From Candidatus Obscuribacterales bacterium (GTDB taxonomy: Bacteria > Cyanobacteriota > Vampirovibrionia > Obscuribacterales > Obscuribacteraceae), in assembly GCA_965229195.1 (NCBI GenBank), contig OZ245871.1:2720420-2784419 (forward strand): 64,000 bases of DNA. Reading direction: 5' to 3'. The translations under genes were made by a program, and so were the position numbers. The notes under the pieces were generated by a model, which was not told where the DNA came from, did no database searches, and saw nothing but the letters and a program-made list of their open reading frames with translations. Below, in pieces: positions 50 to 30,395 of this stretch. How positions within the stretch are numbered: position 1 is the stretch's first letter; every line of letters begins with the position of its first letter.

Positions 50-1705
50 GTGATGGACGCAGCGCCATTCGATAAATCGAAATCGGTCAGCCAGTTGATT
101 CAAGACGGTTCGATTCGCCGTTCTGAAGCTCCTAGCCCAACCCCTGAAGTAGCCAAGCCAGGCGCCCAGGCTGGTGTCACTGTCACCTATGCAGATGCGG
201 CAGCTAACGACCCGACTAAGGTTCCCGATTTCATCATTAAGAAGGATGGCACGATTGAGGCCACCGGAGATTTTGAAGCATTGCAGCGCAAAAACGTTGT
301 GGTGCAGGTAGAGCGTACCCCTGGTGATACTTCTGACCCTAACGATGCTCAGAAAAACGCTATCGATAAAGTTGTTAGCTACGCTTATGACCGCCTTGGT
401 GCTGACCCAACTGTGGCCCAGAATGGTCTGAAGCTCAATGACGAGTTTGGTTTGATTTCAGAAAACTTGGTGAAGAAGCTGGCCACCAATGGTGACCCAG
501 GTGTAGAGCCAAGCATCGCTGATTCTCGCAGAGACTTCTCGCCTGAAAGTCAGCGCGCCATGTCTAACATGAGCCGTATGACTCCTGGTTCGCAAGGAAG
601 TATGTCGCGGGGCGATGTAGAGCGCCAATTCCCACCACGGGATGTGCCTACGCTGCCTGGTGAAACAGATAAAGTTCAAGATACAAAGAACGCTGTAGCT
701 GGGATGTTCAATCCTGATAAAGCTGCACCGTATGAAACTGTGCGGGTTCGCAACAATAACTATGAAGTCGGCCGTTATGGCATGAACTATCCAGTCATGC
801 GTGACTACTTCTATGGTTTGGGCGGCTTTAACCTTGATGAGATGGATGAAGATGGCTTCATTGCCATGCTCGGTAAGCTCGACAAAGACGGCAAGCTACC
901 TAAGTCGTTCAAAAAATTCAAGAAGAAAGATGGCTCCTTTGATAAAGAAGCTGTCGGCAAATTCCTGAAGTTCGCAAAAGGCATGAAGGAAGGCCATAAA
1001 GAAGGCCAACCAGAGGGCGTTACAGCAGCTGATGTTAAAGCCAACTTGCCTAAAGAAATGCAAGAAGAAATGGCCATGAGCCTGGTTGAGAAATATAACA
1101 AGGCTGGTGGAGATAGCGCTGGTAAGACAGCCTTGGCCTTCCACTTGGGCAAAGGACCAGATCAATTCACTCAAACAGACCTGAGCGACAAAGGCAATCA
1201 AGAGTACATGCGCTCTGCTGATCGCTTGGCTCAGTTGTCTGGCGCTCGTCATGGCATGGGTGAGAACGATCGCCTCGATTACAAAATCAGTACTGACGGC
1301 ACGTCGATGGACGCTAAGATCGTCAATCGCGCCTTCCGCCACGCTAGCGCAGTGGGCACCACTGGCTGGTGTGCTAAAGAGTTCCAAATTGCTTGGGCTA
1401 ATACCGCACCTGAACTTGTTGGTTCGGGCGATGGTGTGCAGATGACTAGAGCCTTCCAGCGTAGTGATAAGTTCCAACAAGTTGATTGGCAGACTGCTCA
1501 AGAAGCTATGCGCGGTGGTAAAGCGGTTGCTGTCACTAGAACTTGGGACCCTTCAGTGGGCGACACTTCTCGCGGTGGTCACGTAGCTACATTGGCTATG
1601 CAGAACGGCCGCATTATGGAAGCCAGCGATCACGTTACTCAGTTCAACAAGAACAACGGTCGCTACCAAACTAACAAAGACAAGTTCTTCGTCTATACCG
1701 GTTAG
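50..1705 (+). CDS. Hypothetical protein, possibly 5'-partial. The frame is open back to window position 2. The C-terminal region has Cys/His motifs reminiscent of a CHAP/NlpC-P60-like amidase (GWCAKEF…GGHVATLAM).
   Basis: 551-codon ORF with protein-like composition. A plus-strand stem-loop plus T-run terminator follows at 1730-1760. The domain call rests on motif resemblance only. Confidence 0.5.
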   Translation: MMDAAPFDKSKSVSQLIQDGSIRRSEAPSPTPEVAKPGAQAGVTVTYADAAANDPTKVPDFIIKKDGTIEATGDFEALQRKNVVVQVERTPGDTSDPNDAQKNAIDKVVSYAYDRLGADPTVAQNGLKLNDEFGLISENLVKKLATNGDPGVEPSIADSRRDFSPESQRAMSNMSRMTPGSQGSMSRGDVERQFPPRDVPTLPGETDKVQDTKNAVAGMFNPDKAAPYETVRVRNNNYEVGRYGMNYPVMRDYFYGLGGFNLDEMDEDGFIAMLGKLDKDGKLPKSFKKFKKKDGSFDKEAVGKFLKFAKGMKEGHKEGQPEGVTAADVKANLPKEMQEEMAMSLVEKYNKAGGDSAGKTALAFHLGKGPDQFTQTDLSDKGNQEYMRSADRLAQLSGARHGMGENDRLDYKISTDGTSMDAKIVNRAFRHASAVGTTGWCAKEFQIAWANTAPELVGSGDGVQMTRAFQRSDKFQQVDWQTAQEAMRGGKAVAVTRTWDPSVGDTSRGGHVATLAMQNGRIMEASDHVTQFNKNNGRYQTNKDKFFVYTG

Positions 1706-8784: not shown

Positions 8785-9834
8785 ATGCTCTTGAATCGGC
8801 TAAACTTTTGTTCGGTACAGAAGGTCTTTGCTGTGAAAGCTTTTCGCAAATTATTAGTTTTGACTGCCGCTTTCGTATCAGCCTCTTGTGTGCAGCCATG
8901 CTTTTCTAGTGATGCAACAGATGTCATCTACCGCTTCCCCAATGTTGCCAACTTGGGTGCTTTAGAAACGCGTCTTGGCGATCGCACTGGCGCTGTTGCT
9001 CTCGACCGTATAGCCAGTCGGCGACACAAAGTAGCTACAGCTATGGGCGTTGTGAAACTTTCAGCGGCAGAAAACCGCGGCGTCTACTTCTCGCCGGGTT
9101 TGGCCTTAATCAGGCGTCCAGAGTTAATGGATGCCATTTCTCCCGATAATATTCAGGGCTTCTTCTTCTCTTTTACTTCGACTGGCGATTCTGAAGACGC
9201 TCTTGCCGATGGTCTTGTAGCCAAGATTTCGCATCTGAAAAATTTACGAACGATTACATTGGGTCGTTGCGACGTTTCTGATCTTGGTGCCAAAGGTATT
9301 CGCGATCTGCCGCAATTGAAGAGTTTGGATCTTAGCTATAGCCTAATCTCCAGCAAATCAATGCCAGTTATCGGCAAGTTGACAGGCATTGAAGACCTGA
9401 CCATGAACAGTGTCGATCTATCGCAATCTGATTTCTCTCACATTGGCCGCCTGCCAAAGCTCGCTGCATTGTGCCTGCGCAATGCTCAGGTCACTGATGC
9501 CATGATCAATGCTCTTAAGCCGGGTAAAAGTTTGAGAGTGCTAGATTTGGCTAACAACAGCGCCGTTACTGATGCATCGTTGCCTGCACTGGCGCTTTTG
9601 CCTAATCTCAAGACCGTCAATCTTTCAGGAACTTCAGTGAGTGTGCGTAGCTTGACGAAGCTTGCTCGAATTAATTGTGTGGTGGTTTCTCGACGTGACT
9701 TGAAAGGTGCTAGTTTGGCTATTTTGAGGAAATCAATTCCGAACTTAGTCCTTGACATCCGCGATGGGCAGACGGGTATGGGGAACAGCCCAGGTGCCGA
9801 AGAAATGCATTTGTTTGCGCCGACTAGGTTTTAG
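8785..9834 (+). CDS. Leucine-rich-repeat (LRR) protein, secreted. Alternative GTG start at 8833.
   Basis: Signal-like segment (KLLVLTAAFVSASC) followed by LxxLxLxxN/C LRR units (LRTITLGRCDVSDLG…LKSLDLSYSLIS…LRVLDLANNSAVTD…). Confidence 0.7.
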   Translation: MLLNRLNFCSVQKVFAVKAFRKLLVLTAAFVSASCVQPCFSSDATDVIYRFPNVANLGALETRLGDRTGAVALDRIASRRHKVATAMGVVKLSAAENRGVYFSPGLALIRRPELMDAISPDNIQGFFFSFTSTGDSEDALADGLVAKISHLKNLRTITLGRCDVSDLGAKGIRDLPQLKSLDLSYSLISSKSMPVIGKLTGIEDLTMNSVDLSQSDFSHIGRLPKLAALCLRNAQVTDAMINALKPGKSLRVLDLANNSAVTDASLPALALLPNLKTVNLSGTSVSVRSLTKLARINCVVVSRRDLKGASLAILRKSIPNLVLDIRDGQTGMGNSPGAEEMHLFAPTRF

Positions 9835-9911
9835 TGGTTTTGTATGTCCAGAAATGCTGCCTCGCGGGTATATATATCTGGTAGTTACTAGAGCCCCTGA
9901 AACCCAACCAG

Positions 9912-12900
9912 ATGGCAATCGACGTCAGACAGTTACCAAAAGATGGCGGCGATGATAAAACTTCGCCTGACGTTTCTGCGGCAACTAAAGCCGTTCATGA
10001 GATTACTGCCAAAGATCAGAAGGCCCAGGCTGCCGCTGCTAAAGGCGACTCGGCTGTTTTACCAGTGGTTAAAATCGAGGATCTGGCCAAGCCTGCTAAG
10101 TCTGCTGATGCGGCTGAGAAGCCTATTGATCGCGTGGCTTTAGAGAAAGATGCTGTGGCTCTCAGGCAGGCCACAGGCAACGACAATTGGGTGGCTCGCT
10201 GGGCTGACAAAGACAAAATAGTTGACTTGCTCAAAGGACACACAGCAGCAGAGCTTAAGGTGCTTAACGGCATCTACAAGATGAAGTATGGCGTTGGTCT
10301 TGAGCAAGAAATGTCATTCATGACCGGCTCTGACAAAGCCCGCTTGACGGCTGTTCTGCACAAGAAGGACGGTAACGAAAACACCATAGCCGCTGACCGC
10401 ATTAATGTTGCTTTGACCGAAAGAGGCGAATGGACCGGACGTAGCAATTCCATCATCGAGAAAGATTTGCGCGATAGTTTGCGCACAGCCAATGCTGAGC
10501 AAGTAAAGCAAATTTCTGCCGAGTACCAAGAGCGCCATGGCAAGCCGCTGGCTCAAGCAATTGCCCAAGATCAAAATCTTACGCCTGCAACTAAAGAAGC
10601 CCTGATGATTTACCTCAAGGGTAATGATAAGCGTGCACCTGAAGACTTCACCAAGCTTACTGCTGCCGCTCTGAAGTCTGAAGATTTGCAGTTTTTCAAA
10701 GAAGTGATGAAAGATGCCAGCCCACAAGAGCGGCAGGCTTTTATAGCCGCTGGTGGCGACAAGCAGATGAGAGCCGCCTGGTCCGGAGCTGACTTAAACC
10801 AGGCTCGTGATTTTAGTGCTGATGGTAAGTTGTCTACGGCTACACAGGTCAAAGAAAATACTGGCACTGTCTGGGATAACAACAAGGGCATCGAGCTGGC
10901 TCTGTCGCGTATGACTGACTCTGAGCGCAGCGATTACCGCATCGGCAGACAGTTGAGCGGTGATAGTAGTCCACTTAGCGCCCAAGATAGTGAGCGCCTT
11001 AAGGCTATGTCTCCGGCTGAAAAAGCAACCGCCACAGGGCAATATCATACTCTTAGAGCCAGTTTAGAGGCAGCAGGCAACGCCACTGAATTGGCCCGTT
11101 GGGAATCAATGATCAATGTGCGCGGCGGCTCTATTGCTGCCACTCTCGATCGTCATCGTGGCACGCTGTGGAATGATTCGGCCGCTGACATTGGCACATC
11201 TATTGAGAGCATGTCGAAGAAAGATTGGGAAGCAGCCAAGAATAATCCTGCTGCTCGCAAAGAACTTGAGCAGATGCTCGATAGCCTTAATCAGTCGGAG
11301 AAAGATAAGCAGTCATTGCTGAAGATTTTCGATCAAAAGATGAGTGCCAAGACTTACGAAGAGTCAGTTGATACTGGCAAAGTCTCAGTCGTTGAGCGCA
11401 TGGACGAAAAATGGCACTTCTATCGCAATGACCAGGGTGCCATGCTCGCAGCTGTTTCTGGCATGTCCAAAGAAGACAGAGAGCGTTACAAGAGCGACAG
11501 CAAATTCAAAGCTGAACTTGATCAAAAAGTCGATAGCTACATGTCGGGTCAGGCACGCGACGAAGCTCAGAAGATACTAAAAGCAGTTGAACGTGGCGAG
11601 AAGCCAGTATCGACAATAGTGACAAAGCTGACTGAGCATGCAGCTAATGCGTTTGTTGATGAAGGCAAGGCTATTCGTGATATTCGCGATGCTTTCAATG
11701 CCGATCCAACACTTAGAAGTCGCATCAATGAACCCAAGACTGACGCTGACCGCGCCCTGGCTGCTGACTTTAAAAAGGCTGGAGAGCAGGCTTTGGGCAA
11801 AGACATGTATCAAGAGTATGTGGGCGAATTGCTCAAAACTGGCTCAATATCTGCCGATAAAATGACTCGACTCTCTAAGGGAGTGTTCTCTGACGATGAA
11901 GTCACAACCTACGAAGATATTGCTAAAGCACCAAAAGCAGAGCGTGATCGCTTAAAAAATGACATTGCCTATCAAAACACTGCTTTAGACCATCTCAATA
12001 GTGACGAGCGTAAAATTGCTCTGGCTGCTGCTGAGCAAGGCGAGTATCGCCCGGAAGATAAAATTAGAGCTCACATTTTGGGCTTTGGGGGCAGCCAAGA
12101 AATAGTCGAGCAGCTCAAGCAAGTGCCCACTGAGCAATTGAACCAACTAAAGAGTGACTATGCTCGCAAGTATGGCAGCAGCTTTGAAAGCGACCTGATG
12201 GCCAAACTCGGCGGACAGGAAATGGCAGAGGCCCGGCGTGTTTTGACAGCCGATAAGTCTTTAGCTGAGCGGGTCAACATTGCTCGCGATGAGTCTTACT
12301 CTACTCGAAGTGGCATTGGTGCAGGATTTGCTGATTTGGTTAGCGCTACTGGTAAACAATCAGATGACGCTTTAGACCAAATGCTGCAAACCGCTGCAGA
12401 GGCTAATCGCAAGGGAGAAGTGGCAAGCCCCGAGCAAATGAAGAATATGCTTGATGACTTTGCTACAGCTATTGATAATCATCGCGAGACCAAGAGTGCA
12501 GCCGCTGATTATACCGCTGATGCTCTCATTGCCGGTGGTGCCATCGCCAGTGTGATTGCCACTGGCGGTACAGACTTGCCATTAGTCGCGGCGATGTTGG
12601 CTGCTGGTGGAGCCGCTACTAAAGTGGGCAGCAAGGCTGTGCTTATGGGGTCCGATTATGACTTCAAACTGAGCACAGTTGCTAAAGATGCTTCTGTTGG
12701 AGCTTTGACTGGCGCTACAGCGGTATTTGGTCAGGCGCAGTTAGCGGCGGTCTTCAAGGTCGGTCAGCAGGCGGCTAAAACGGCTGCTACTGCCACACTT
12801 AGCACTCTTGCTAGAGAGAGCGTAGACGTCGTGGCCAAGCGTGCTGGTATTGAGCTAGCTGAAGGAGTTGCTGGTAAGCAGCTCTTTGTAGCTGGTTACG

Positions 12901-15900
12901 AGAAAATCTTAAGCGAAGGTACTGAGACTGCCATGCGCAACTTGCTGGCTAATGGAGCCAGGAAAATTGAAGAGAAATCTTTTGCTGCCATAGCTGAGCG
13001 CGTCATTGATGCTGGCATTCAAGGGCCGCTGAGAGAAGCTGCCGTGGCCAGCGTGCGCAAAGAGTTGACTGAGCAGGCGACCAAAGAGTTCGCTCGCCAT
13101 ACCGCTAACTGGCTAGTCTATCAGGGTACTGCTCAAGGTCTAAATGCCGGAGCTGGTGCTGTGGCTAACACCGGTACTGGCGTCTTAGAGGGAGCGGCCG
13201 CCTGGGATTCGAGCAAAGGATTAGGTAGCAACCTTTCTAATGTTGGTCTGCATGCCTTTAATTCTTCTCTTGCCGGTGCTGGTGGCGCCTTGTTCTTCGG
13301 TGGCGTGATCAAGGCTGGTGAAGCTGGATTTAGCAGTTTGAGTCGTGTTAGAGGGCCAGAAGTCGCACGTTCTGAGTTTAGTCTGGCACCAGAAGTTAGA
13401 CCTGGTAGCGAAGTTCGAGGTCCTAACATTGCTCACGATCTGCCATTGCGAGGACAGATTGATTTTTCTCCTAGTGTGGCCATGGCAGCCATTGAGACCC
13501 ATCCACGCACTAGTGGCTCGGCCGTAGATCAGTTGTGGGTGCCTGCTCGCGAGATGGAGAAAATGGCTCCTCATGAGCGTTTGGCTTTAGTGCGTGAGCT
13601 TGGCAAAGACATTACCCCTCTCAATACCGTTGTTAAAGCTGGTCAGTTTGTAGATGGCATTGAAGCAGCCACAAAAGGCTGGACGCAAGATTTCTCGCAT
13701 TTGCCCAAGGCTCTGGATGAGGCCTATGGGCGCTTCCAGGTTACTGGGCAGAAAATCAATGCTCTTGTCGATAAGTACGGCATGCCCTGGCGTGATGGTG
13801 AATTAGACACTGCAGCTATGGCCGCCAGCATGAAAGGTCATCCAGAAGATCTCTCTGTTTTGAGAGCCTATATTGCCGATAGGCAGGCTTACTCTGATGC
13901 ACTTTCTTTGCAGAACAAGGTGCTTGAGCAAAGAGTAGGTGATTTGCAAAAGGCCATGGATGCCTTTACTACTGCCAATGATTTGCCTCATGTAGAGGTT
14001 AAGTCTGGCCGTAGCGCAGCTATGGTGGGCAAGGCCGCTAGCTATCGCGACGGCACTATCACGCTTAACCCAGATAATCTTCTGGCTAAAGAACACACCC
14101 TTGATGTCTTTGAGTCTTCTTACCATGAATTGACTCACCATGAGCAGAGATTCACTGTGGGGCGCAATCTGGCTGATGAGCTAAAAATTGGTGCGAAGGC
14201 AACAGATGAGCAGGTAGGGCACTTCAAAGCCTATTATGAGCACCAGACCAAGCAGACTATGACAGAGGCACAGGCACGACAGTTGCTAGATGCTCGCTCT
14301 AAGCTGAGCCCGCTTGAACTGAGCCCTGAGCAAGCATTGAGAGCAAATAATATTGAAGCTGCTTTCCGTAAGAATGCTCCAGCTGCTGAACAGCTTGTGG
14401 CGTTAGGAAATGACTTCCGCGTTGTTAAAAGCTATCTCAAGCCCTTCCAGATTGGCACAGATCCTAATGTTGCCTATAAGCTTTTGACCAAGATTTTCGA
14501 AGGAAAAGATGAGCTATTAGTTAAGCGCCTGTTCGGCAGCACCACTCCATCGGCAGAAGCACAAGCTTTCTACGGCAGGCTCAGGAATTCGCTTGAGGGT
14601 GGCGGTGATACCTGGACAAAGAGTGACGCTGCGGCTGCCTCTAAGTATTTCAAAGAAACCCTGGAGACAAGGCTGCAAGACATTAATGCTAGCCGTCGCA
14701 GTGTCTACGCAGATTATATGCAGACCCACGAAGTTGATGCTTTCTTAAGCGGTCAGCGCGCTCGTGCTCAAGCGATGGAGCGTGGTCATCAGCCAGCTAG
14801 AGAGATTCGCGCTGCTAACATTCGGGCCAGTGAGAATGCTGAAATTGAGTATCTGCTAGATAATTCTTTCGAGAGTATTGGTCGGCATGTTGGTCAAGAC
14901 GCACCAGCTGTAAAGCCACCGCGGCTCTTCATTGAGGGTGGTCAGGGTGCGGTCAGTGACTATGATGTTGCCACCGATTCTATCATTTTTAGTCATGCCG
15001 CAATAACCGTGAAGAGACCGGCAGCCCAGATGCAGAGCCAGTTCAATCGCTCCGGTAATTTTAAAGACGGAGAAGTGCTTTCTATTCGCGGCTTGACTGA
15101 GGACTTGCCAGGTCTGGTAAAGGCTAAGGTTGTCACTGCCAACTCTGAACGTGTCAGTCTACGTTATGAAGGGCCTTATACGATCTCGCGTCAGTCAGTA
15201 CCTAAAACAAATGAAGAAATCGCTCAACTTGATGCCTTTATTGCTAAGAAGATTGAGCCACGGTTAGTGGAGCCAAACTTCAGTGCTCCTGGTAGCGCAG
15301 AAGCTCATGTTAAGGCGGCTTTGCTCATCGGCGACAATCTCGGTACGGCTGATGCTAGTGTGCTCAACTATGTCCTGAAAAATAGTACTGGAGACAACGA
15401 GTTCAGGCCAATTCTCTTTAAAGAGTTAGCCCGTCGGGCGGAAGAGGGTACATTGCCAGAGCGTACAGCTGCCCTATGGTTTAGCGAAATTGGGCCAGCT
15501 CTTAAATCGAATCCAGTTGAGCGAGCCCGGGCTTACAAAGACTTTCTCGATTACACTCCTGCCGAGATGCGTGATCAAATCACGAAGAGTGGTGAGGCTA
15601 ATGAGTTATTGAAGCGGGCCTTCAACGCTGTTGGCGACGGCAATAGTTGGCCAATCAAAGGCACTGCTGCCGCTCACTGGGCCACTGGCGAAGTGGCTCC
15701 AGCAATTAGACAGTTAGAAAAGATCAAAGATCAAGTGCTTAGCAACTCTGACTTCAGGCAGATCAATTCAGGCGGAGACCGCAGTCAACTGACGATTTGG
15801 CACATGCTCAGCAATGAACGCGATGGTATTCTTGCCAGCCTGAAAAGAGATAAGAGAATTAGCCCCGATTGGCAAGTTTATCCTACTGAGGCTAAGTCTC

Positions 15901-17198
15901 CGTTGGATAGAGCTGGCGGCGACTATCTCTTAGTCAACACCAAAACAGGTGATTTCCACTTCTTAGATGCCACATCGAATCCGCAGAAATCAAATGTATT
16001 TGCCTTGCGTGAACCCGGTGTAATTCGCACTGATAATGGTTTGTTTGATATATCTGGTGCGCTCAAGACTGATGATCCAAGTTCGACGGTGCGTACTCAA
16101 GCTACGAACTTTAAGCCTAATCTTGAAGACCAAATATTGGCCATGACCAGTCGTCCATCGGCTTTCCGTCTAGGAGCAGATGGGCCACCTCTGCCCAGTC
16201 TAACTCGTACAAGTGAAGCTGATGCTACTACTCAGCTAGGTCAACTGATTGATTGGGCGCGAGCCAAAGCCAAGGCTTCAACCGATTCGCGTGAGCGTGC
16301 CGATTGGCTTGATATGGCAACCATTGTAGAGCGTGCCAAAACCTACTCTAATATTCAGGCCACCCAAGTTCAGTCTGCTGAGTTGGGGCAGAGCCTAGAT
16401 TCTGTCACTAGAGCTGAACTAATTAATTATGCGATGACGAAGGTCAAGCGAGTGGAGTATGCTAGGCCCGCTAAAACAACAGCTGTGGCTGATGTTAACA
16501 TCGGCAAAGATCATACAGTCATGCTTAAGACTAAAGATGGCGGCTACTACAATGGTGGCAATCTCGATACCAGCATTGAAGCTGCTCGTCGAGATTTTCT
16601 TGATTCCACCCGTTTGGCTAAAGCGTTGAGCAATGGTCAGGTTGATGCACTCGGTGGCGACGGCAAGGCGCTCAAAGGGCTCAGTGGTTCTGAGCGTCAG
16701 TCTGCCATTGAGAAGCAATTGCGCCTCAACGCTAAATTCCAGGCCAATGTTAAAGCTTTGTCTTCTGTATTCATGAACGATCAAACCGTCATACGTAACG
16801 GTGGTGCTACCGGTAATAATCCAGCGGCAATCTTCGAGAACATTGGCAGCCGGCTGCGGGCGCGCAATGAAGACTCGCTACTTGGTCGGCAGCCTGAAGT
16901 GGCGGTTAAGCCTGGTGTGGCGTCGCCGGCGGTGTCATCGCTTAGGGTGGAAAGCCTTGAAGGCGGGTTGCCTGAGTCGACAAAGCTATTGAAAGAGTGG
17001 AAAGAGCCCCCTTCTCGGCTTGATGCTCCAGCACAGAATATCAGCGATATTCTTGATCTGATTATCGATGAAAATAACTCTATTCCAGTGACTGAGTTGC
17101 CTAGGCTGAAAGCTCTTAGAGATGCCTACAAAGACCCAACAAACCCAGAGCATGCCCGCGCTTTGAAGATGATTCACGATCTTATGCTTGCTGGTTAG
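9912..17198 (+). CDS. Giant multidomain protein (2428 aa). The N-terminal ~900 aa are tandem annexin-like repeats. Next comes a Gly/Ala-rich hydrophobic segment. A C-terminal region carries an HExxH zincin-like motif (SYHELTHHEQ).
   Basis: Uninterrupted 7.3-kb ORF. Repeat units match the annexin consensus (DAVALRQATGNDNW…IVDLL…YKMKYGVGLEQEMSFMTGSDKARLTAVL). HELTH is encoded at ~14124-14138. Confidence 0.85.
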   Translation: MAIDVRQLPKDGGDDKTSPDVSAATKAVHEITAKDQKAQAAAAKGDSAVLPVVKIEDLAKPAKSADAAEKPIDRVALEKDAVALRQATGNDNWVARWADKDKIVDLLKGHTAAELKVLNGIYKMKYGVGLEQEMSFMTGSDKARLTAVLHKKDGNENTIAADRINVALTERGEWTGRSNSIIEKDLRDSLRTANAEQVKQISAEYQERHGKPLAQAIAQDQNLTPATKEALMIYLKGNDKRAPEDFTKLTAAALKSEDLQFFKEVMKDASPQERQAFIAAGGDKQMRAAWSGADLNQARDFSADGKLSTATQVKENTGTVWDNNKGIELALSRMTDSERSDYRIGRQLSGDSSPLSAQDSERLKAMSPAEKATATGQYHTLRASLEAAGNATELARWESMINVRGGSIAATLDRHRGTLWNDSAADIGTSIESMSKKDWEAAKNNPAARKELEQMLDSLNQSEKDKQSLLKIFDQKMSAKTYEESVDTGKVSVVERMDEKWHFYRNDQGAMLAAVSGMSKEDRERYKSDSKFKAELDQKVDSYMSGQARDEAQKILKAVERGEKPVSTIVTKLTEHAANAFVDEGKAIRDIRDAFNADPTLRSRINEPKTDADRALAADFKKAGEQALGKDMYQEYVGELLKTGSISADKMTRLSKGVFSDDEVTTYEDIAKAPKAERDRLKNDIAYQNTALDHLNSDERKIALAAAEQGEYRPEDKIRAHILGFGGSQEIVEQLKQVPTEQLNQLKSDYARKYGSSFESDLMAKLGGQEMAEARRVLTADKSLAERVNIARDESYSTRSGIGAGFADLVSATGKQSDDALDQMLQTAAEANRKGEVASPEQMKNMLDDFATAIDNHRETKSAAADYTADALIAGGAIASVIATGGTDLPLVAAMLAAGGAATKVGSKAVLMGSDYDFKLSTVAKDASVGALTGATAVFGQAQLAAVFKVGQQAAKTAATATLSTLARESVDVVAKRAGIELAEGVAGKQLFVAGYEKILSEGTETAMRNLLANGARKIEEKSFAAIAERVIDAGIQGPLREAAVASVRKELTEQATKEFARHTANWLVYQGTAQGLNAGAGAVANTGTGVLEGAAAWDSSKGLGSNLSNVGLHAFNSSLAGAGGALFFGGVIKAGEAGFSSLSRVRGPEVARSEFSLAPEVRPGSEVRGPNIAHDLPLRGQIDFSPSVAMAAIETHPRTSGSAVDQLWVPAREMEKMAPHERLALVRELGKDITPLNTVVKAGQFVDGIEAATKGWTQDFSHLPKALDEAYGRFQVTGQKINALVDKYGMPWRDGELDTAAMAASMKGHPEDLSVLRAYIADRQAYSDALSLQNKVLEQRVGDLQKAMDAFTTANDLPHVEVKSGRSAAMVGKAASYRDGTITLNPDNLLAKEHTLDVFESSYHELTHHEQRFTVGRNLADELKIGAKATDEQVGHFKAYYEHQTKQTMTEAQARQLLDARSKLSPLELSPEQALRANNIEAAFRKNAPAAEQLVALGNDFRVVKSYLKPFQIGTDPNVAYKLLTKIFEGKDELLVKRLFGSTTPSAEAQAFYGRLRNSLEGGGDTWTKSDAAAASKYFKETLETRLQDINASRRSVYADYMQTHEVDAFLSGQRARAQAMERGHQPAREIRAANIRASENAEIEYLLDNSFESIGRHVGQDAPAVKPPRLFIEGGQGAVSDYDVATDSIIFSHAAITVKRPAAQMQSQFNRSGNFKDGEVLSIRGLTEDLPGLVKAKVVTANSERVSLRYEGPYTISRQSVPKTNEEIAQLDAFIAKKIEPRLVEPNFSAPGSAEAHVKAALLIGDNLGTADASVLNYVLKNSTGDNEFRPILFKELARRAEEGTLPERTAALWFSEIGPALKSNPVERARAYKDFLDYTPAEMRDQITKSGEANELLKRAFNAVGDGNSWPIKGTAAAHWATGEVAPAIRQLEKIKDQVLSNSDFRQINSGGDRSQLTIWHMLSNERDGILASLKRDKRISPDWQVYPTEAKSPLDRAGGDYLLVNTKTGDFHFLDATSNPQKSNVFALREPGVIRTDNGLFDISGALKTDDPSSTVRTQATNFKPNLEDQILAMTSRPSAFRLGADGPPLPSLTRTSEADATTQLGQLIDWARAKAKASTDSRERADWLDMATIVERAKTYSNIQATQVQSAELGQSLDSVTRAELINYAMTKVKRVEYARPAKTTAVADVNIGKDHTVMLKTKDGGYYNGGNLDTSIEAARRDFLDSTRLAKALSNGQVDALGGDGKALKGLSGSERQSAIEKQLRLNAKFQANVKALSSVFMNDQTVIRNGGATGNNPAAIFENIGSRLRARNEDSLLGRQPEVAVKPGVASPAVSSLRVESLEGGLPESTKLLKEWKEPPSRLDAPAQNISDILDLIIDENNSIPVTELPRLKALRDAYKDPTNPEHARALKMIHDLMLAG

Positions 17199-17325: not shown

Positions 17326-18054
17326 GTGAAGACCACAAGGGTCTCAATATTCAAAACTGCTTTAGTTCTTTCTTTGCTGTCCTTATCTACTCTAGAAGTG
17401 CTGGCGGCAGAAGTAAGACAACCTGTGCACGTCTACTTTTTTACCGGTGGATTCATTGACGTATTCAGTCGTGAAACAGTCAAGAAGATAAAAACGAAAA
17501 CCCAAAACATTGGCCGAGAGCTAGAGATTCCGGTAAAGTTTGAACGACATTGGTTTACCAATTGGCGGTCGGTTTCCAAAAAGATTCAAGCGGATCGCAG
17601 CAAGGCCAAGGTCGTCTTGCTGGGACATAGCTGGGGCGCTGCCGGAGCTGTCCATTTGGCTCGAGATTTAGATAAGAAAAACATTCCAGTTGACCTACTA
17701 GTGACCATCGATACTGTTTCAGTGCCTGGAGCATCTCAAGCGAGTACTATTCCGGCAAATGTGCGTGTTAACTACAACTTCTATGAAGGAAGCGACCTGT
17801 TTTTGCACGGTCTGCGAAATAATAAACGAAAAGGTTCAAGTTCCGTCGATGGCATTCATAACGTCAAAGTTTTGGTCGGGCCCACTTTCTCACCGCATAT
17901 GACTATTGATGACAAGATTGAACCGTTAGTTTCCTGTCAGATCAAAATGTTGATGCTTGATCAATTGGATCAACTGAACATTCCCGATCAACTCGACAAA
18001 AAGCATCTGGCAGAGCGGATAACTGCGCTGGAAGAGAGTTTGTCAACAGACTGA
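17326..18054 (+). CDS. Secreted alpha/beta-hydrolase-like protein (GHSWG nucleophile elbow).
   Basis: Signal peptide. GxSxG motif (LLGHSWGAAGA). Product call is tentative. Confidence 0.55.
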   Translation: MKTTRVSIFKTALVLSLLSLSTLEVLAAEVRQPVHVYFFTGGFIDVFSRETVKKIKTKTQNIGRELEIPVKFERHWFTNWRSVSKKIQADRSKAKVVLLGHSWGAAGAVHLARDLDKKNIPVDLLVTIDTVSVPGASQASTIPANVRVNYNFYEGSDLFLHGLRNNKRKGSSSVDGIHNVKVLVGPTFSPHMTIDDKIEPLVSCQIKMLMLDQLDQLNIPDQLDKKHLAERITALEESLSTD

Positions 18055-19939: not shown

Positions 19940-20644
19940 TTAGATGTCCTTGGCCTTGCTCTCCATCGAGAACAGGTCTTTGCCGCTGGGTGAGGGCGGC
20001 AGTTGCTGACGGCTGACCAGCTTGAAGGTTTTGCCGTCGAAGTCGTAGGTGTTGATGGAGGCCGATGGCACCCCTTCTTTGCCCAGCTGCTCAAGATCTT
20101 CGCCAGCCCATTGCCATTGGCTTACGCTGACGACAGTTTCGTGAGTGCTGATCAAGACCACCGCTGATGGTGGCAGATTGTTGATGCGTTCTTTCTGGAA
20201 GTCGAGAAAACGCACCGCGACATCGTGCCAGTTTTCGCCACCTTCGGGGCGATAGTGCACCTTGCCGACTGTGCGCCGTTCCTGCCACTGGGTCGGGAAC
20301 TTCGCTGCGCGACCCTTTTTGGTGAGGTCGACGAAGATGCCAAAGTCGATTTCGCGCAGGCGCTCATCCAGCATCAGCTCGATTTTCGTCGGCAGCTTGC
20401 TCAGGGCGAAGGCGCCGGTTTGGGTGGTGCGCTTGAAGGGCGAACTGAAGCCGTGGGTCGGTCTTTCGCTCTCGGGCAGAGAGGCAAAGAAGAGAGCAAG
20501 CGCTTCTCCCTGCTCGTCACCGAGTTGAGAAAGCGGCACCGCTGAGTCTGGTAGAAGCTCGGGCGGAACAACCTCAGCATCGGGGTTGCTCATTCGCCAG
20601 CGCATGGCAGCGCTTTCACAGTGTCTTAGAACATATATTCGCAT
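19940..20644 (-). CDS. Histidine phosphatase superfamily protein (PGM-like). Start at MRIYVLRHCES.
   Basis: N-terminal RHG-type catalytic motif (VLRHCES). GGAG 8 nt upstream. Last gene of the operon. Confidence 0.65.
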   Translation of the reverse strand: MRIYVLRHCESAAMRWRMSNPDAEVVPPELLPDSAVPLSQLGDEQGEALALFFASLPESERPTHGFSSPFKRTTQTGAFALSKLPTKIELMLDERLREIDFGIFVDLTKKGRAAKFPTQWQERRTVGKVHYRPEGGENWHDVAVRFLDFQKERINNLPPSAVVLISTHETVVSVSQWQWAGEDLEQLGKEGVPSASINTYDFDGKTFKLVSRQQLPPSPSGKDLFSMESKAKDI

Positions 20645-20669
20645 GGGTGCTCCATTGTATCGTGTTGGT

Positions 20670-21872
20670 TTAAGCGCTGGCGCTGCTTTTCGACAAGGCT
20701 GCTCGAATGTAGGCGAGAATCTTCTTCTCACCAGACCCGGGCACCAGAATTCTTTTGCTGTTCTTGCCTTTCTTGTCGTTGATGATGTTGGCAGCGAAGC
20801 TCTCGAGTTGAGAAAGGAATGCCGCTAGTTGCGGCTGGTTGATGTTTTCAGCGCAGACGCCGAAGTTGTTGTCGCCGACGGCATGAGCGTTGATCTGTTG
20901 CTCGTAGACTGCCAGCGGAATCAGGTAGGCCGGAATGCCTAGGTACATTGCCTCCGAAACCAGGGTGTGGCCACCGGTGGTGACAATGCCCTGGCATTCG
21001 GCTAGCACATCGAGGAAGCGTGGATCGCCATGGCGACGCAAAGTGACGTTGCTGGGCAGCCCAGCCAGCAGATGCTGCGGAAGTTCTTTGACAAAGACAT
21101 GGAAGTGATACTCGGGGGCTGAGGACAGCACGGTGAGTACCTCTTCGTAGCTTTGGACAAAGTCTCTTTGCGACGAGATGTAGACCAGAATTGATCTGGA
21201 ATTGGTCCCGCTTCCAGATTTGCATTTGTCCTTCTGAGCCTGGAGGCGCCGCTTCTTCATCGCCACGATGGCTGGCTTGATGATGGGCGGGCAGATGATC
21301 ACCTTTTCGCTGGCAGCACTTTTGCCGTCAGCGCGCCGTGGCACAGTGAAGAAGGAGCAGGCCAGCCGCAAGGCTGCCGTTGGAAAGAAGAGCCGGAGTC
21401 GAGCTACTTCATCGAGGCAGGTCTGGCCCGCGATGGCTTGGCTGTAATCACCGACCAGATATTTGCTCTGCTGGTCGATTGTCACCAGGGGCGTGCCGCT
21501 GGCATAGGCGTACTGAGCGCTGACAGGCTCGTAGTCTGAGATCACCAGGTCGGGTTTGCCGATCAGCTTTTGCGTCAATTCCATGGCCGCCAGGTTGATG
21601 GCCTCATGGTCAATGCCGCTGGCGGCGATGCGTCGGGCAGTCTCAGCGAAATCGAGGCCCTGGGCGTTGCCGACGTAGAAGGGCACCGAGACAGTCAACA
21701 CCGTGACATTTTCGCTCTGGCGGAAATGCTCTTCGTAAAAGCTTTTGCTTTCGCCATAGACGAAGAGCACGATGCGATTGTCTTTCGCCAGTTCGTCGAG
21801 CAGCGGCAGCTGGCGGTAGGTGTGACCCATGCCGATACCACACACTCCATAGAGTATCTTTTTGCTTTTCAT
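20670..21872 (-). CDS. Glycosyltransferase, MGT/UDP-glycosyltransferase-like (GT-B fold). Start at MKSKKILYG.
   Basis: N-terminal YGVCGIGMGH. C-terminal GT-B donor-binding-like block (GIVTTGGHTLVSEAMYLGIPAYLIPLAVYEQQINA). Its ATG overlaps the upstream stop (ATGA). Confidence 0.7.
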   Translation of the reverse strand: MKSKKILYGVCGIGMGHTYRQLPLLDELAKDNRIVLFVYGESKSFYEEHFRQSENVTVLTVSVPFYVGNAQGLDFAETARRIAASGIDHEAINLAAMELTQKLIGKPDLVISDYEPVSAQYAYASGTPLVTIDQQSKYLVGDYSQAIAGQTCLDEVARLRLFFPTAALRLACSFFTVPRRADGKSAASEKVIICPPIIKPAIVAMKKRRLQAQKDKCKSGSGTNSRSILVYISSQRDFVQSYEEVLTVLSSAPEYHFHVFVKELPQHLLAGLPSNVTLRRHGDPRFLDVLAECQGIVTTGGHTLVSEAMYLGIPAYLIPLAVYEQQINAHAVGDNNFGVCAENINQPQLAAFLSQLESFAANIINDKKGKNSKRILVPGSGEKKILAYIRAALSKSSASA

Positions 21873-22810
21873 AAATCCTCCAGTGTGTGGTTGATGAAGG
21901 GTAGTGAGCCTTCCAGCTCCCAAACCGGTAATTTCGTCAGCGCTCGGGAGAGCTCGTTCGCCAGTCGCTTGTTGACGCCGCTGGGCGGGCTGCCAGCAAA
22001 GACGAGACGGCCGCCAGCTAAGACGATGTCAGCATTGACGGCATCGAGGAAGAAGGGATAGAGCTTATGCAGCGCCGAGAGGGCGCTGAGCTGCCTCGAC
22101 TTTTCGGCGCCGTCGTTGAGACGCGGCAAGCTGATCAAGGTCACTGCCTGTGGTGCCGGGTCGGCATAGAAGCGCTTGCTCAGACTGAAAGCAGAGCGAC
22201 CTTCGTAGCCAACTTCCTCGTTTTCCAGCGCTTCCGGCAAGTGTCTGGCCAGGTCTTCTGCCCTGGTGGTGATGGTGCGGGTGCCGGCGATGGCAGTGAT
22301 AATTGCAGGGTCTTCTTTGCTTGAACCCGGTGAAATTTTCACCAGGGTACGGTTGCCAGAGAAGACTTTGTAGCCGCGCGCTAGAGCACTCAGCGTTACT
22401 GCTGTTTTGCCCACACCGGAATGGCCGACGATCAGGCTCAATTGCTGTTGCTGATTTTCCAGGCAGGCAGCGTGAACGCAGTAGAGCCCCTGCTTCAGCC
22501 ACTTCTGCCGGGCAATGCCGTAGGTGAGGAAGATCAGGTCCATCAGCGCGTCAGCGGTGCTCGGCGTGAAGAAGGTATAGCCGTAGCCGTTCTTGCTCAG
22601 CGACAATCTCGGCCTGCTTGATTGCCGCAGGGCGATAGTGACCAGGCCTTTCTCTCTTTTCGCGCTGGGATCAGCTAGCTCGACGCCTGGCAGATAGGCC
22701 CCTAAGAGCAGACACGCTGCCGGGTCATCGAAGAGCGGCTGGGGCAGGTCGAGCAAAACTTGCAGTGCACCTGGCAGCCGCAAGAGATACTGATGTTTGG
22801 CGCTAGACAT
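21869..22810 (-). CDS. HPr-kinase-related P-loop protein (HprK C-terminal-domain-like).
   Basis: Walker A GHSGVGKT in a ~310-aa protein of HprK-like size. Start at MSSAKHQ, which overlaps the upstream gene by 8 nt. Confidence 0.55.
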   Translation of the reverse strand: MSSAKHQYLLRLPGALQVLLDLPQPLFDDPAACLLLGAYLPGVELADPSAKREKGLVTIALRQSSRPRLSLSKNGYGYTFFTPSTADALMDLIFLTYGIARQKWLKQGLYCVHAACLENQQQQLSLIVGHSGVGKTAVTLSALARGYKVFSGNRTLVKISPGSSKEDPAIITAIAGTRTITTRAEDLARHLPEALENEEVGYEGRSAFSLSKRFYADPAPQAVTLISLPRLNDGAEKSRQLSALSALHKLYPFFLDAVNADIVLAGGRLVFAGSPPSGVNKRLANELSRALTKLPVWELEGSLPFINHTLEDL

Positions 22811-23993
22811 TTTGTACCTCCTTTCGGCTGGCTTGGTTATTGGCTTGAGTATTGGTTGGAGCGCAGCTTTGCCGCTGGCTTTGCTGATAGACCAGTTCAG
22901 CGACATGCTGCGCGCCGCCTGAGCCAAACCGCTCTACCAGTGCCGTTAGGCGGCTGTTTTGCGGCAGTGCTTTGATTTGCCGGCGCAGCAATTTGGCCAA
23001 GCGGGTCTTTGCTCTCTTCGAGCTTTGCCCCTGCTCTAGGGCGGCGGCAATGCTTTTAAGAACAGCACCTTGGTCGGCGCTGTAGTCGATGGCGCTGACT
23101 GGCAGAATCTGGTGCCAGTCGACCAGGCCGTCCACCAGACTGCTCTGGTTCAAAAGCGCCAACTGCTGACCCTGGCTGTCGTTGGCCGGTGGCAACCAGA
23201 TGGTTGGTGTGTCGAAGCGAGCAGCGTCGTAGATATTGCCCAGACCCGGCGTCATCAGAGCATATTTTGCTTGTTGCAGAACAACTTGCATTTGCTCGCG
23301 GCTGAGGTTCTTGGCGCCGAGGTGAGCCAGTGCAGCCGAGATAGCGGAGTTGGCTGCGACCACGACCTTTTGGCCAGCCAGGGTGGGCAGCACTGCTTCG
23401 AGAATTTGGCGGGCATAAGAGAGCGCCTCATTGCCTGTCCACAGCGGATTGCTCAGGCCGCCGAGGTTGACCAGAACCAGGTCTTTGGCGCTGTCGGTCT
23501 TGCCGCCGGGCTCATTGTCTGACTGCTGGCCGACAATTGGCGCTACCGTCTGCCAGTTGGCGGCCGCGAATTCAGGCGATTTCAGCCGCTCTTCCACCCC
23601 GAAGAAGTTCTGGGCGATGTACAAATCGACGTGCTGAACTACGGCTGGAATGGTCTTCCAATACCAGGTGAGTGGGTCGTAGATACAGACCGTCAGACCC
23701 TGCCCTAGTGCTTTTTCGGCCATGGCAAAGTCGAGGGCGGTGAGGAAGATGTCGTATTGAGCGAAGATTTCTTTCAGTGCTTCTTCGCTGAGCTGGCTGG
23801 CGTCATAGATGGCGTCGTAGGCAAGCGGCCTCTGCAAATCGAGAGTGTGACCGGTGCCGACGAAACCAATGGTGCTGAACTGCTTGCGCAGAAAAGGGAA
23901 GCAGTCAGCAATGGCAGCGGTTGGTCCGAAGCCAAAGGCCTCGGCGTTGAGCAACAGCCGCGGCTTTGTCTGTTCAGTATTTTTCCTGGCCAT
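22803..23993 (-). CDS. Hypothetical GT-B-like (glycosyltransferase-like) protein.
   Basis: C-terminal block resembles a GT-B nucleotide-sugar-binding half (…YALMTPGLGNIYDAARFDTPTIWLPPANDSQGQQLA). Weak assignment. Overlaps the upstream gene by 20 nt. Confidence 0.45.
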   Translation of the reverse strand: MARKNTEQTKPRLLLNAEAFGFGPTAAIADCFPFLRKQFSTIGFVGTGHTLDLQRPLAYDAIYDASQLSEEALKEIFAQYDIFLTALDFAMAEKALGQGLTVCIYDPLTWYWKTIPAVVQHVDLYIAQNFFGVEERLKSPEFAAANWQTVAPIVGQQSDNEPGGKTDSAKDLVLVNLGGLSNPLWTGNEALSYARQILEAVLPTLAGQKVVVAANSAISAALAHLGAKNLSREQMQVVLQQAKYALMTPGLGNIYDAARFDTPTIWLPPANDSQGQQLALLNQSSLVDGLVDWHQILPVSAIDYSADQGAVLKSIAAALEQGQSSKRAKTRLAKLLRRQIKALPQNSRLTALVERFGSGGAQHVAELVYQQSQRQSCAPTNTQANNQASRKEVQNV

Positions 23994-25122
23994 AGATTAA
24001 CCTTCCGAGTTTAGTTAGTTTTTCTGACCGGCGCAGGGCTGCTAACCGAGTCTGGTTGGTAAAACGAGGGCGCTTGCTGGCGTGCATCAAGGCGTCACGA
24101 ACATTGCTGCCCAGTCCGCTCTCAAAGGCGTCCTGCCGGGCCTGGCAAGCGCTCTCATCGCTCTGCCTTTGCGGGCCGAAGGCGATGTATGCGACTGTGC
24201 GCGTCTGCTCTGAGACGTTGCTGCTGTTGGCGTGGGTGGTACGGCTGTCCCAAGAAATCAGATCACCAGCACGCAGCGGGCAGAGCTGAGCCCCAGCGGT
24301 GAATTCGGCGGCGATGGCGTGACCGAGGTCGAGTTCCACGTACTCACCCTGGTTTTTGGCCATGGAGCCGTAAACCGAGAAGCTGTCGCGGGAGCCGGGT
24401 ACGCCGACGAAGGTGCCGCGCTCGGCTGGGCAGTCGGCTAGCGCCAGAACACCCTGGACAGTGCGGAAGTCGGGGTGCACATTGGGATTTTGGTCCACGT
24501 GCAAGGGCAGGGCTTTGCCATCGGCAAGACCTGGAAGCTTGATGCCAAGCCGGTCGAAGGTCGTCCACAGGTCTGCCCGGCCCCAGATCAGAACGTAGTG
24601 CAGGTAGACACGCACGCTCTGGCGGACGGCGGCGATGGCCTGGTCATGGTAGATTTCGAAAAATCCACGAGAGATGATCGGGACAGCGGCTTGATCGACT
24701 GGAATGTTGTCCCAGGTCGAAGGCTTGCTCAGGTCGCAGGTGCCTTCGCTGAGAGCCAGCAGAAGTTCATGCATGCGGGCCACGACTTCCTGGCATTGGC
24801 TCTGGCTGACGACGTTGGCGCCGACGACAATGCCATAGCGATTCCACGAATCGACGAACTCTTTCTCTTGGGTCAGCGGGTCGAAACCGATGACATAACC
24901 GTCCTGGTCGAGAGGAAGACGTGGGGCTGCGGCCGGCTTTGCGGTCGTGGCTAACTGGCGGCCATACTGGGCGTAGCGAGCGACCACTTTGGGATGGGCG
25001 CAACGCTTCTGCAGTTTGGCAATGAGGCGGGTCAAAAGCAGATCGAGCGGTTCTTCGCCTTTGTCGATGCGCTGAACCAGGTTGCGTATTGATTGGTCAA
25101 TAATCCACATGTTTTTTCTCAC
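23974..25122 (-). CDS. Phytanoyl-CoA dioxygenase (PhyH)-family Fe(II)/2-oxoglutarate-dependent oxygenase.
   Basis: HxD facial-triad-like LPLHVDQN, a distal His (TTHANSS) and PhyH-like length. First gene of the operon. Confidence 0.6.
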   Translation of the reverse strand: MRKNMWIIDQSIRNLVQRIDKGEEPLDLLLTRLIAKLQKRCAHPKVVARYAQYGRQLATTAKPAAAPRLPLDQDGYVIGFDPLTQEKEFVDSWNRYGIVVGANVVSQSQCQEVVARMHELLLALSEGTCDLSKPSTWDNIPVDQAAVPIISRGFFEIYHDQAIAAVRQSVRVYLHYVLIWGRADLWTTFDRLGIKLPGLADGKALPLHVDQNPNVHPDFRTVQGVLALADCPAERGTFVGVPGSRDSFSVYGSMAKNQGEYVELDLGHAIAAEFTAGAQLCPLRAGDLISWDSRTTHANSSNVSEQTRTVAYIAFGPQRQSDESACQARQDAFESGLGSNVRDALMHASKRPRFTNQTRLAALRRSEKLTKLGRLIYGQEKY

Positions 25123-25145
25123 AGAGTTGTCGACCGATGGAGCTC

Positions 25146-25161
25146 CATCGACCTTTTGTTA
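25146..25161. promoter_or_regulatory. Perfect 16-bp palindrome CGATGGAGCTCCATCG, ~20 nt upstream of the dioxygenase start.
   Basis: Seen in the sequence. Candidate operator. An upstream TTGACA-like hexamer is also present at ~25341. Confidence 0.35.
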
Positions 25162-25572
25162 CGTGAAAGCTGTTGATTGGCAGCTGGTAGATGTTGCCCT
25201 TTTGCTGTCTAGTGGCCGTGAAGATTCCCAGAGAGGATCTCGTCAGGTGGTTCTTGCAAGGGCCGTTGTGGTGCTGGGCGTAGGCGGTAAATAAATCTCA
25301 GAAAGTTAGAAGGTGATGTATTCAAACTACTTGGCTCTTTGACATCAATACAAGATCTGAGTAGTAAAGAGTTGCAAAGAGTTGAGGCCGATATTATGGA
25401 GAGTTTAGATGTGGGGCCGTAGTAGTGCAGCTAGCGGAGTTTCATGGGGTGGGGAAAGGGTTTCAACTATAAAAACTAATAGATAGGCGAAAAAAGAAAG
25501 CAAAGTGAGAGCCGTGGCTCCTACTCTGCTTTCCCAAAAGAGAAGTTCTCTTTTTAGTGCCTCGATAGCTGC

Positions 25573-27141: not shown

Positions 27142-27197
27142 GCGCTAGGCTTATGGGCTTTGCGCATGTTTGAGTTTGTTGGTGAGTGAAACCAGCA

Positions 27198-30046: not shown

Positions 30047-30149
30047 AATTTTCGTCCTTCAGCGAGCGTGATAAATAGCCTCTGTGTTTTTGAAGCCAAT
30101 GCTATTTTCGCGTTTTCTGACAATTCTGTTTTTCTCGAGGGGGAGGAAG

Positions 30150-30345: not shown

Positions 30346-30395
30346 ATATCCGATCGACTTACCTTGGCTGCTCGGCAATTTTGCCTCAAAACGGC

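Follow-up and report, generated by a model that had tools for sequence, protein, structure and literature searches.

Annexin domains have been described in polymorphic toxins delivered by Photorhabdus virulence cassettes (PVC), where they stand upstream of a lethal-factor-like peptidase or of Ntox3 and were proposed to help in breaching target membranes (Zhang et al., 2012, PMC3482391). Kodavali et al. (2014, PMC3894181) reported fusions of bacterial annexins with DUF4157, M90, lipase, colicin D, and Ntox3 domains; transmembrane regions occur in some of these proteins. Here we analyzed a 64,000-nt stretch of contig OZ245871.1 (positions 2,720,420–2,784,419 of the forward strand; assembly GCA_965229195.1, Candidatus Obscuribacterales bacterium), hereafter referred to as the window. 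It contains a giant gene coding for a protein of 2428 amino acids (aa) with annexin repeats, an Ala/Gly-rich hydrophobic block, and a putative metallopeptidase module with a HExxH motif. On balance, and with modest confidence, we regard this protein as belonging to a large family of giant, modular proteins that resemble effectors or toxins, in which a membrane-docking array and a membrane-inserting block would carry an exchangeable zincin-like cargo.

In the annexin toxins of Haliangium, Microscilla, and Burkholderiales JOSHI_001, too, enzymatic or toxin domains, among them metallopeptidases, are preceded by annexin domains (PMC3482391, PMC3894181), so that the combination, which an earlier note on this gene had taken to be undescribed, is not new as such. 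Their annexin domains number from one to a few and are combined with DUF4157/PVC-metallopeptidase, M90/lethal-factor-like or Ntox3 domains, and their delivery is tied to PVC or extracellular contractile injection systems (eCIS). The general idea is therefore known. The differences of the giant family are a fixed, decayed array of ~800 aa with three recognizable repeats, an obligatory Ala/Gly-rich hydrophobic block, a HExxH domain without a Pfam model and without DUF4157, the absence of a known trafficking domain, the size of the family, and the other phylum in which it occurs. No publication on this family was found in the literature.

Two further groups of toxins were used for comparison. Multifunctional autoprocessing repeats-in-toxin (MARTX) proteins and large clostridial toxins, which served as a working analogy, are very large polypeptides with a repeat or hydrophobic delivery region, exchangeable effector domains, and an in-line protease. 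Pfam and NCBIfam searches of the giant protein detected no repeats-in-toxin (RTX) repeats, cysteine protease domain, glucosyltransferase or combined repetitive oligopeptide (CROP) repeats, and, in contrast to these toxins, its putative delivery region is annexin-derived. RHS/YD toxins show a similar variability of the C-terminal part, and several paralogues of the family hold RHS/YD and YD-shell sequences before or after the annexin-plus-block region. The giant protein itself, unlike these toxins, has no RHS repeats according to Pfam, and RHS trafficking domains such as PAAR or VgrG were not seen.

A constant array and block with exchangeable tails

Full-length orthologues of the giant protein, with 56–95% identity, were found in metagenome bins of Candidatus Obscuribacter or Melainabacteria. 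The ratio of non-synonymous to synonymous divergence (dN/dS, Nei–Gojobori method) against three genomes of the same genus was 0.02–0.26 in every segment. Since the orthologues are full-length and the ratio is low in all segments, the gene is a real, functional coding sequence throughout and is under purifying selection. It is the only member of its family within the window. Taxonomically named members of the family nearly all belong to Obscuribacterales or Melainabacteria, and a motif-anchored scan with one genome per species yielded 16 loci, nearly all labelled as Obscuribacterales, Melainabacteria or Cyanobacteriota; a few bore no label beyond 'bacterium', and the species label of one is probably wrong.

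Module boundaries were set by blastp of the giant protein against 41 first-round homologues (relatives are numbered from P0001 on, those of the representative search being P0044–P0189). The region of aa ~60–1145 was common to nearly all of them, the most distant one aligning only to about aa 971. Residues 1185–1625 were shared by P0001–P0021 and residues 1625–1905 by P0001–P0020, and residues 1905–2428 were restricted to the orthologues P0001–P0013. Apart from the most distant one, the 41 homologues all had the hydrophobic block, in each case immediately behind the array. The same was seen in 146 distant representatives with 50% identity or less: array and then block occurred in 35 of them, every representative with the array had the block immediately after it, and the HExxH module was always C-terminal of the block. 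Two representatives had the block without the array, one of them truncated (block from residue 1) and the other with an internal block.

Elsewhere in the family the tails include RHS/YD repeats, YD-shell, tyrosine and dual-specificity phosphatases, PRTase-like domains, FHA repeats, and HD-like domains, or a papain-like module with the motif 'QGxNxTCNV'. In some relatives the array-block part is internal and follows N-terminal RHS repeats. Copy number and architecture vary widely, with lengths from 1.4 to 7.7 thousand aa. The array and the block are a constant module fused to many exchangeable C-terminal domains, and a conserved N-terminal part followed by diverse, exchangeable C-terminal domains is the organization by which polymorphic toxins are recognized.

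In our reading, the array has three true annexin repeats with about six derived helical ones between them and behaves as one fixed unit of ~800 aa. The Pfam Annexin model (PF00191) recovered annexin repeats in the protein with 27.1 bits against a cut-off of 25, in one 31-residue stretch only. A 14-sequence profile of aa 70–865 matched annexin VI in PDB at E 2.6e-32 and had 84 PDB matches, all confined to profile positions ~10–172, which correspond to aa ~79–240 of the query, i.e., to the first two repeats. Hidden Markov models (HMMs) of repeats 1 and 2 also matched aa 729–777, and aa 714–781 (unit 9) aligned with these two repeats at an hhalign probability of 94–96%. Pfam, profile, and hhalign data thus support annexin repeats for aa 73–237 and 714–781 only, aa 240–712 having no PDB annexin match, and the annexin repeats proposed for at least the first ~900 residues are an overstatement.

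For pairwise hhalign, the array was cut into ten provisional units. Units 1, 2, and 9 formed a canonical group with the motif 'Y..KYG..L' (84–96% mutual probability), and units 4, 5, 6, and 8 formed a derived group with the motif 'M[ST]..[DE]R..Y' (83–97%). Unit 7 was weakly tied to unit 8, and units 3 and 10 were unlinked. The mutually homologous middle units were located at aa ~304–402, 403–489, 490–567, and 648–717. Self-alignment of the array region by hhalign gave an off-diagonal match with E 2e-18 at an offset of about 80 residues. The AlphaFold2 (AF2) model of aa 60–1150 had a mean predicted local distance difference test score (pLDDT) of 80 and a predicted template modelling score (pTM) of 0.72; over the array it was all-helical, with about 50 short helices and pLDDT ~90. 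The 797-position array profile was usually matched end to end in distant representatives. An annexin origin of the middle region (aa 238–713) is plausible at most.

Eukaryotic annexins, such as annexin A5 and the eight-repeat annexin A6, are never fused to a membrane block and enzymes, unlike the giant protein. They have a four-repeat disc and a GxGT/acidic-cap site, neither of which was recovered here. With respect to the disc, only 70–144 residues align. The AB loops of repeat 1 (TGNDNWVARWAD) and repeat 2 (ERGEWTGRS) bear Trp and stand in place of the GxGT calcium loop; the loop of repeat 9 (aa 714–781) is GFGGS. By hand alignment to annexin V, repeat 9 presumably has Lys at the expected acidic-cap position. 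On reading the sequence, the type II calcium site (GxGT loop and an acidic residue ~38 positions downstream) is not kept in the giant protein; the canonical GxGTDE loop survives in the relatives P0034 and P0039. We suppose that the array would dock the protein on a lipid surface. This binding is probably calcium-independent, since Trp-bearing loops replace the canonical calcium loops.

The Ala/Gly-rich segment pointed out previously was well recognizable. Ala and Gly together make up 34.6% of aa 855–1140 vs. 19% of the remaining protein, and this block includes a conserved hydrophobic hairpin and further hydrophobic segments. Its most conserved part is 'K.AAADY.ADA.IAGGAIASVIATGGT.LPLVAA.LAAGGAA.KVGTK.ALMG.DYD'. 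The hairpin is formed by two hydrophobic helices of ~18 residues with a tight turn between them and charges on both sides. Helical hairpins of such kind are used by membrane-inserting toxin domains. Sequence searches detected no relative of the block in PDB; a match to acanthaporin at E 0.62 in the module and block searches was dismissed as a chance one. The block may insert into the same membrane on which the array docks, either anchoring the protein or passing its C-terminal part across.

The HExxH domain

HExxH occurs once in the giant protein, as HELTH at aa 1405–1409 (nt 14124–14138), the chance expectation being 0.037 for a protein with this composition. In a ten-sequence alignment, Y1404, H1405, E1406, T1408, H1409, H1606, and E1607 were invariant. 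An exhaustive search with a profile of the HExxH module over 1.84 billion cluster representatives found 392 clusters (50% identity) at E 1e-3 or better, 234 of them at 1e-10 or better; many of the 392 also have the array and the block. The proteins bearing the module range from 120 to 7753 aa, and in some giants it is doubled or located mid-protein. Three giants (P0061, P0065, and P0094) carry the domain without the array or the block and have no Pfam domain at all.

Conservation was counted over the 146 distant representatives. Their signature consists of a Y..G.I.[LIV] strand, H-E-x-x-H-x-x-Q-D, and, ~195 residues later, Y-x3-H-E-x-[ED]-A. Positions of HExxHxxQ were occupied by H in 154/167, E in 156/168, H in 162/169, and Q in 161/168 cases, and those of the downstream motif by Y in 117/121, E in 119/123, and A in 105/120. 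The HExxH domain is a widespread family with the sharp signature HExxHxxQD ... YxxxHExEA and without a Pfam or NCBIfam model. E1607, within HEVDA, is a candidate third zinc ligand.

In the AF2 model of the module (pLDDT 80.6, pTM 0.75), a long helix precedes three short strands, these lead into the HExxH helix, and after a helical insertion there is a helix opening with the HE..A motif. HELTH lies inside model helix 209–239 and E1607 at the start of model helix 421–439. A structure prediction of this region had been suggested in the earlier note; it placed HExxH in a helix after three strands, and in comparison with PDB structures the model found no match and the zincin fold was not recognized.

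Sequence and profile searches of the whole module against PDB and Pfam gave nothing relevant. With a profile of the 75-position strand-plus-helix core, only ten PDB matches were obtained at E 10 or below, namely PBCV-1 P4, two Spartan SprT domains, proabylysin, five BepA entries, and oligopeptidase A (OpdA). The alignments span the preceding strand as well as the HExxH motif. A Pfam scan of 45 core segments gave weak matches recurring mostly in zincin families, namely DUF6782 (10/45), MPTase-PolyVal (7/45), and SprT-like (6/45), and single weak ones to M90, M78, Zincin_1, Reprolysin_3, M60, and a phage metallopeptidase. The best E values were 1.2e-4 for DUF6782 (19.3 bits for P0052, cut-off 27), 2.9e-4 for SprT-like, and 1.1e-3 for MPTase-PolyVal. 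Pfam scans of the whole protein, the module, and the core never listed DUF4157, not even with E values as high as 10, and the label 'DUF4157-type' given to the motif before was not supported. The zincin-like motif itself stands as a single, near-invariant HELTH with a candidate third ligand, E1607, but reached no curated threshold and had no structural match.

In gluzincins, the two His of HExxH are combined with a downstream Glu (BepA paper). The pattern observed here fits, because the later helix opens with E-x-x-A. Minimal gluzincins (M48/M56, minigluzincins/proabylysin, SprT/Wss1-like, DUF6782, MPTase-PolyVal) share with the module a HExxH helix right after a short sheet, a last strand with a conserved G-x-I, and a downstream helix opening with E-x-x-A. 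Unlike them, the giant protein has a helical insertion of about 195 residues between the two motifs. According to the sequence and the model, the module is probably a gluzincin-type peptidase with a large helical insertion.

Proposed role and alternative explanations

The giant protein has no Cys in 2428 aa, ~29 being expected; the other open reading frames (ORFs) of the window average 1.2% (P ~2e-13). Across the relatives P0001–P0156 the Cys content is 0–0.2%, and among the few Cys residues that were read, several lie within phosphatase or papain-like active-site motifs. A scarcity of Cys is often seen in extracytoplasmic proteins and in those exported in an unfolded state, and it is a hint of an extracellular role of the family.

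Synonymous divergence (dS) was uneven along the locus. It was 0.15–0.33 in the downstream flanking genes, 1.3–1.5 in the gene of a leucine-rich repeat (LRR) protein located just upstream, and 0.9–1.7 in the giant gene in comparison with loci L007 and L009, two segments being saturated. In comparison with L006, dS was 0.44–0.47 in the array and block and 1.1–1.6 in modules 3 and 4, the C-terminal modules that follow the HExxH domain. The LRR gene and the giant gene (8785–17198) together form an island with 4–8 times the synonymous divergence of the flanks (L006, L007, and L009). Module 4 is the most diverged, recombining part of the gene, with dS 1.2–1.7 vs. 0.15–0.33 in the flanks. The dS island and the L006 mosaic indicate old alleles that were retained or swapped through recombination, one breakpoint lying within the giant gene, and not a faster change of amino acids. 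Polymorphic toxins characteristically have their C-terminal part replaced in this way, and here such replacement is seen as the allelic mosaicism with L006. Positive selection as a cause of the divergence was rejected, as dN/dS is 0.02–0.26 and the excess is in dS.

We propose that the C-terminal part of the protein would be an exchangeable cargo, comprising the zincin-like HExxH domain and modules 3 and 4. Most likely, the HExxH domain would be a zinc-dependent peptidase that attacks target proteins; another possibility is self-cleavage, by which the distal modules would be freed. The previous description of the protein as a large secreted effector or polymorphic toxin is retained here as a modular toxin-like reading, with the constant module and varied tails, the mosaic locus, the scarcity of Cys, and the conserved zincin-like signature behind it; what we infer is that the protein is secreted, binds lipids and inserts into a membrane, and that it binds zinc and is proteolytic, as well as what kind of target it has. 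A further-reaching form of this proposal, which we put forward tentatively, is that the array and the block are a self-contained delivery platform, so far only in the non-photosynthetic Cyanobacteria of the order Obscuribacterales. Such a platform would bind a target membrane (perhaps eukaryotic or that of prey), insert into it, and carry swap-in enzymes, among them the zincin-like peptidases that no family model covers, across without a dedicated secretion apparatus on the target side, as an annexin-based counterpart of MARTX and clostridial toxins.

Several observations weigh against the effector- or toxin-like interpretation. Direct reading of aa 1–72, which are hydrophilic and charged, revealed no signal-peptide-like stretch, as the earlier note had stated. 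No secretion-system genes were recognized in the 64-kb window, and no trafficking or secretion domains (PAAR, LXG, TPS, PVC etc.) were detected in the giant protein by Pfam or NCBIfam. A conserved small immunity-like gene was not found beside the giant gene either in same-genus or in distant loci, and the low dN/dS in all segments of the gene gave no sign of positive selection. As for the array, the profile of aa 240–712 had no annexin among its PDB matches (the best match was unrelated, E 0.3), and hhalign cross-links between the canonical and the derived groups of units were 33% or less. The long helices that AF2 built for the block have low pLDDT, and if the helices crossing the membrane are even in number, anchoring in the producer's own membrane would fit just as well. 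Finally, all zincin profile matches were below the curated Pfam thresholds.

Some of these points are accommodated by a resident membrane-anchored protein, with the block in the cytoplasmic membrane, the array on the inner leaflet, and the tails serving the cell's own remodelling, repair or regulated proteolysis. We consider this unlikely. It agrees with the lack of a signal peptide and of nearby secretion genes, with the purifying selection throughout the gene, and with the presence of about four hydrophobic segments, by which both ends could share one side of the membrane; a cytosolic membrane-anchored topology was also predicted for one bacterial annexin (Kodavali et al., 2014, PMC3894181). 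However, Cys depletion throughout a family is unusual for cytoplasmic proteins, and the RHS cages, phosphatases, and papain-like modules found in the tails are typical of delivered toxins and effectors. The 4–8 times excess of dS and the internal mosaic are typical of conflict loci, and the wide variation in copy number and architecture, from 1.4 to 7.7 thousand aa, also speaks against a resident role.

According to another explanation, which we find doubtful, the protein is a delivered toxin with the HExxH domain as an in-line processing protease, and modules 3 and 4, released after insertion, are the true cargo. This role would parallel that of the cysteine protease domain in MARTX and large clostridial toxins. 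Further modules do follow HExxH in the giant protein and in many relatives, the domain is doubled or mid-protein in some giants, and its closest relatives among the weak matches (SprT, minigluzincins, M48) belong to the small regulated proteases. There is also a precedent for processing peptidases upstream of toxin domains, e.g., the role proposed for the PVC-metallopeptidase (PMC3482391, PMC3894181). On the other hand, HExxH is the last domain in P0046, P0048, P0051, and P0054, which is the toxin's own place in polymorphic toxins, no cleavage-site motif was identified, and similarity to DUF4157 or a cysteine protease domain is lacking.

That the HExxH module is not a peptidase but a helical scaffold or another metal-dependent enzyme, with the activity residing elsewhere, is improbable: the full-length module profile has no relevant PDB or Pfam match and the spacing of about 197 residues between HExxH and the candidate Glu is unusually long, but HExxHxxQ and Y...HE.[ED]A are near-invariant over the distant representatives, most of the weak core-profile matches are zincins and cover the preceding strand along with the motif, and the succession of a backing helix, three strands, the HExxH helix, and a later Glu helix suits a gluzincin with an inserted helical subdomain.

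If the effector- or toxin-like interpretation is correct, Obscuribacterales, which are common, uncultured bacteria of soil, sludge, and fresh water with a poorly known lifestyle, possess giant modular effectors in great number (hundreds of clusters, the longest proteins reaching 7.7 thousand aa), and the annexin-derived membrane module shared by them suggests interaction with other cells. The array and block, about 1100 aa in total, would be a compact unit for studying how annexin repeats cooperate with a hydrophobic hairpin at membranes. For annexin evolution, they would mean that bacterial repeats can decay into a fixed helical array. The HExxH domain could be defined as a new peptidase family.

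Sequence features and neighbouring genes

Table 1. Features of the giant protein and the adjacent genes (nucleotide positions are those of the window)
Feature	Residues (aa)	Nucleotides	Strand	Characteristics
LRR protein gene		8785..9834	+	Pfam LRR matches, signal peptide, possible lipobox (…VSASC), 78 nt upstream of the giant ORF
Giant gene		9912..17198	+	ORF of 2428 aa plus stop, ATG start, uninterrupted
N-terminal leader	1–72	9912..10127	+	Hydrophilic, charged, MAIDVRQLPKDGGDDK kept in orthologues
Two canonical annexin repeats	73–152 and 153–237	10128..10622	+	Family profile, PDB annexin matches
Middle helical-repeat region	238–713	10623..12050	+	About six units, each of roughly five short helices
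Third canonical annexin repeat	714–781	12051..12254	+	GFGGSQE endonexin-like loop, YARKYG...L motif
Ala/Gly-rich hydrophobic block	855–1140	12474..13331	+	A+G content, hydrophobicity, conservation
Helical hairpin of the block	864–907	12501–12632	+	Bilobed hydrophobic stretch
Third hydrophobic segment of the block	929–947		+	Moderately hydrophobic
Amphipathic charged helical stretch of the block	~955–1065		+	
Gly-rich segment LNAGAGA...WDSxK of the block			+	After the amphipathic stretch, before the last hydrophobic segment
Last hydrophobic segment of the block	1115–1133	13254–13310	+	
HExxH module	~1201–1640	13512..14831	+	Putative gluzincin-type domain, without Pfam model
Strand motif ASYRDGTITL	1376–1385	14037–14066	+	
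YHELTHHEQ	1404–1412	14121–14147	+	
YMQTHEVDAF	1602–1611	14715–14744	+	
Module 3	1641–1905	14832..15626	+	Blastp module map
Module 4	1906–2428	15627..17195	+	Conserved motif and conserved C-terminal helical tail
Module 4 motif DWQVYPT..SPLDRxGxDYLLVNxKTGDxHFLDAT	1985–2029	15867–15999	+	
Downstream gene		17326–18054	+	Sec signal peptide, weak lipase_3/alpha-beta-hydrolase similarity, E about 5e-3

The leader is probably disordered; pLDDT was low at the start of the model of aa 60–1150. On reading the sequence, module 3 seems to have a short first part, probably rich in strands, and then a helical one; it is shared only with the relatives P0014–P0020 and had no PDB or Pfam match. Module 4 and its motif also had no match in PDB or Pfam. 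Several giant proteins of these bacteria that are unrelated in other respects contain a short piece of this motif. A C-terminal signal of the type I secretion system kind (conserved tail, no Cys) was considered for the giant protein and rejected family-wide, as relatives end in unrelated domains.

In seven bins of the same genus (L002 and L004–L009), the LRR gene stands ~80 nt upstream of the giant gene. The gene order LTXXQ / orf201 / (TPR) / LRR / giant / hydrolase-like / DUF1214 / His-phosphatase / GT1 recurs as far as the contigs reach. The LRR protein may be a partner of the giant protein; as an obligatory partner throughout the family it was rejected, since the gene is missing from more distant loci. 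L007 lacks the downstream hydrolase-like gene, the evolution of which resembles that of the flanks. The closest locus, L002 (CALRJJ020000025.1), has ~94–96% aa identity over the compared segments and the same gene order. It is labelled as a metagenome-assembled genome (MAG) of Flavobacterium psychrophilum, which is probably a binning or labelling error, all other relatives being Obscuribacterales.

In distant Obscuribacter loci, the neighbours of the orthologue differ. In three loci, a second giant paralogue comes after it (L001, 18291–27344; L011, from 14684; L012, from 14673). The second paralogue has a 1145-aa N-terminal extension and its own annexin-like array and hydrophobic block.

Scans of the window for tRNA genes and Rfam families found nothing, and promoter and terminator scans around the giant gene were uninformative. 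A second LRR protein gene is located at 62447–63514. The region 39818–42030 (+) may be a small gene cluster for a ribosomally synthesized and post-translationally modified peptide (RiPP): it contains a gene for an MbnB/TglH/ChrH-type RiPP-modifying enzyme (40569–41564, E 9e-73) and overlapping flanking ORFs without a Pfam match. Two other proteins have N-terminal extensions, an SPFH/Band-7 protein (30800–33094, +) with a long one of about 430 aa and an SbtA-type bicarbonate transporter (59793–61760, +) with one of about 237 aa. The GC content was 0.54–0.59 at 20000–28000 and 30000–36000 vs. 0.45–0.50 elsewhere in the window.

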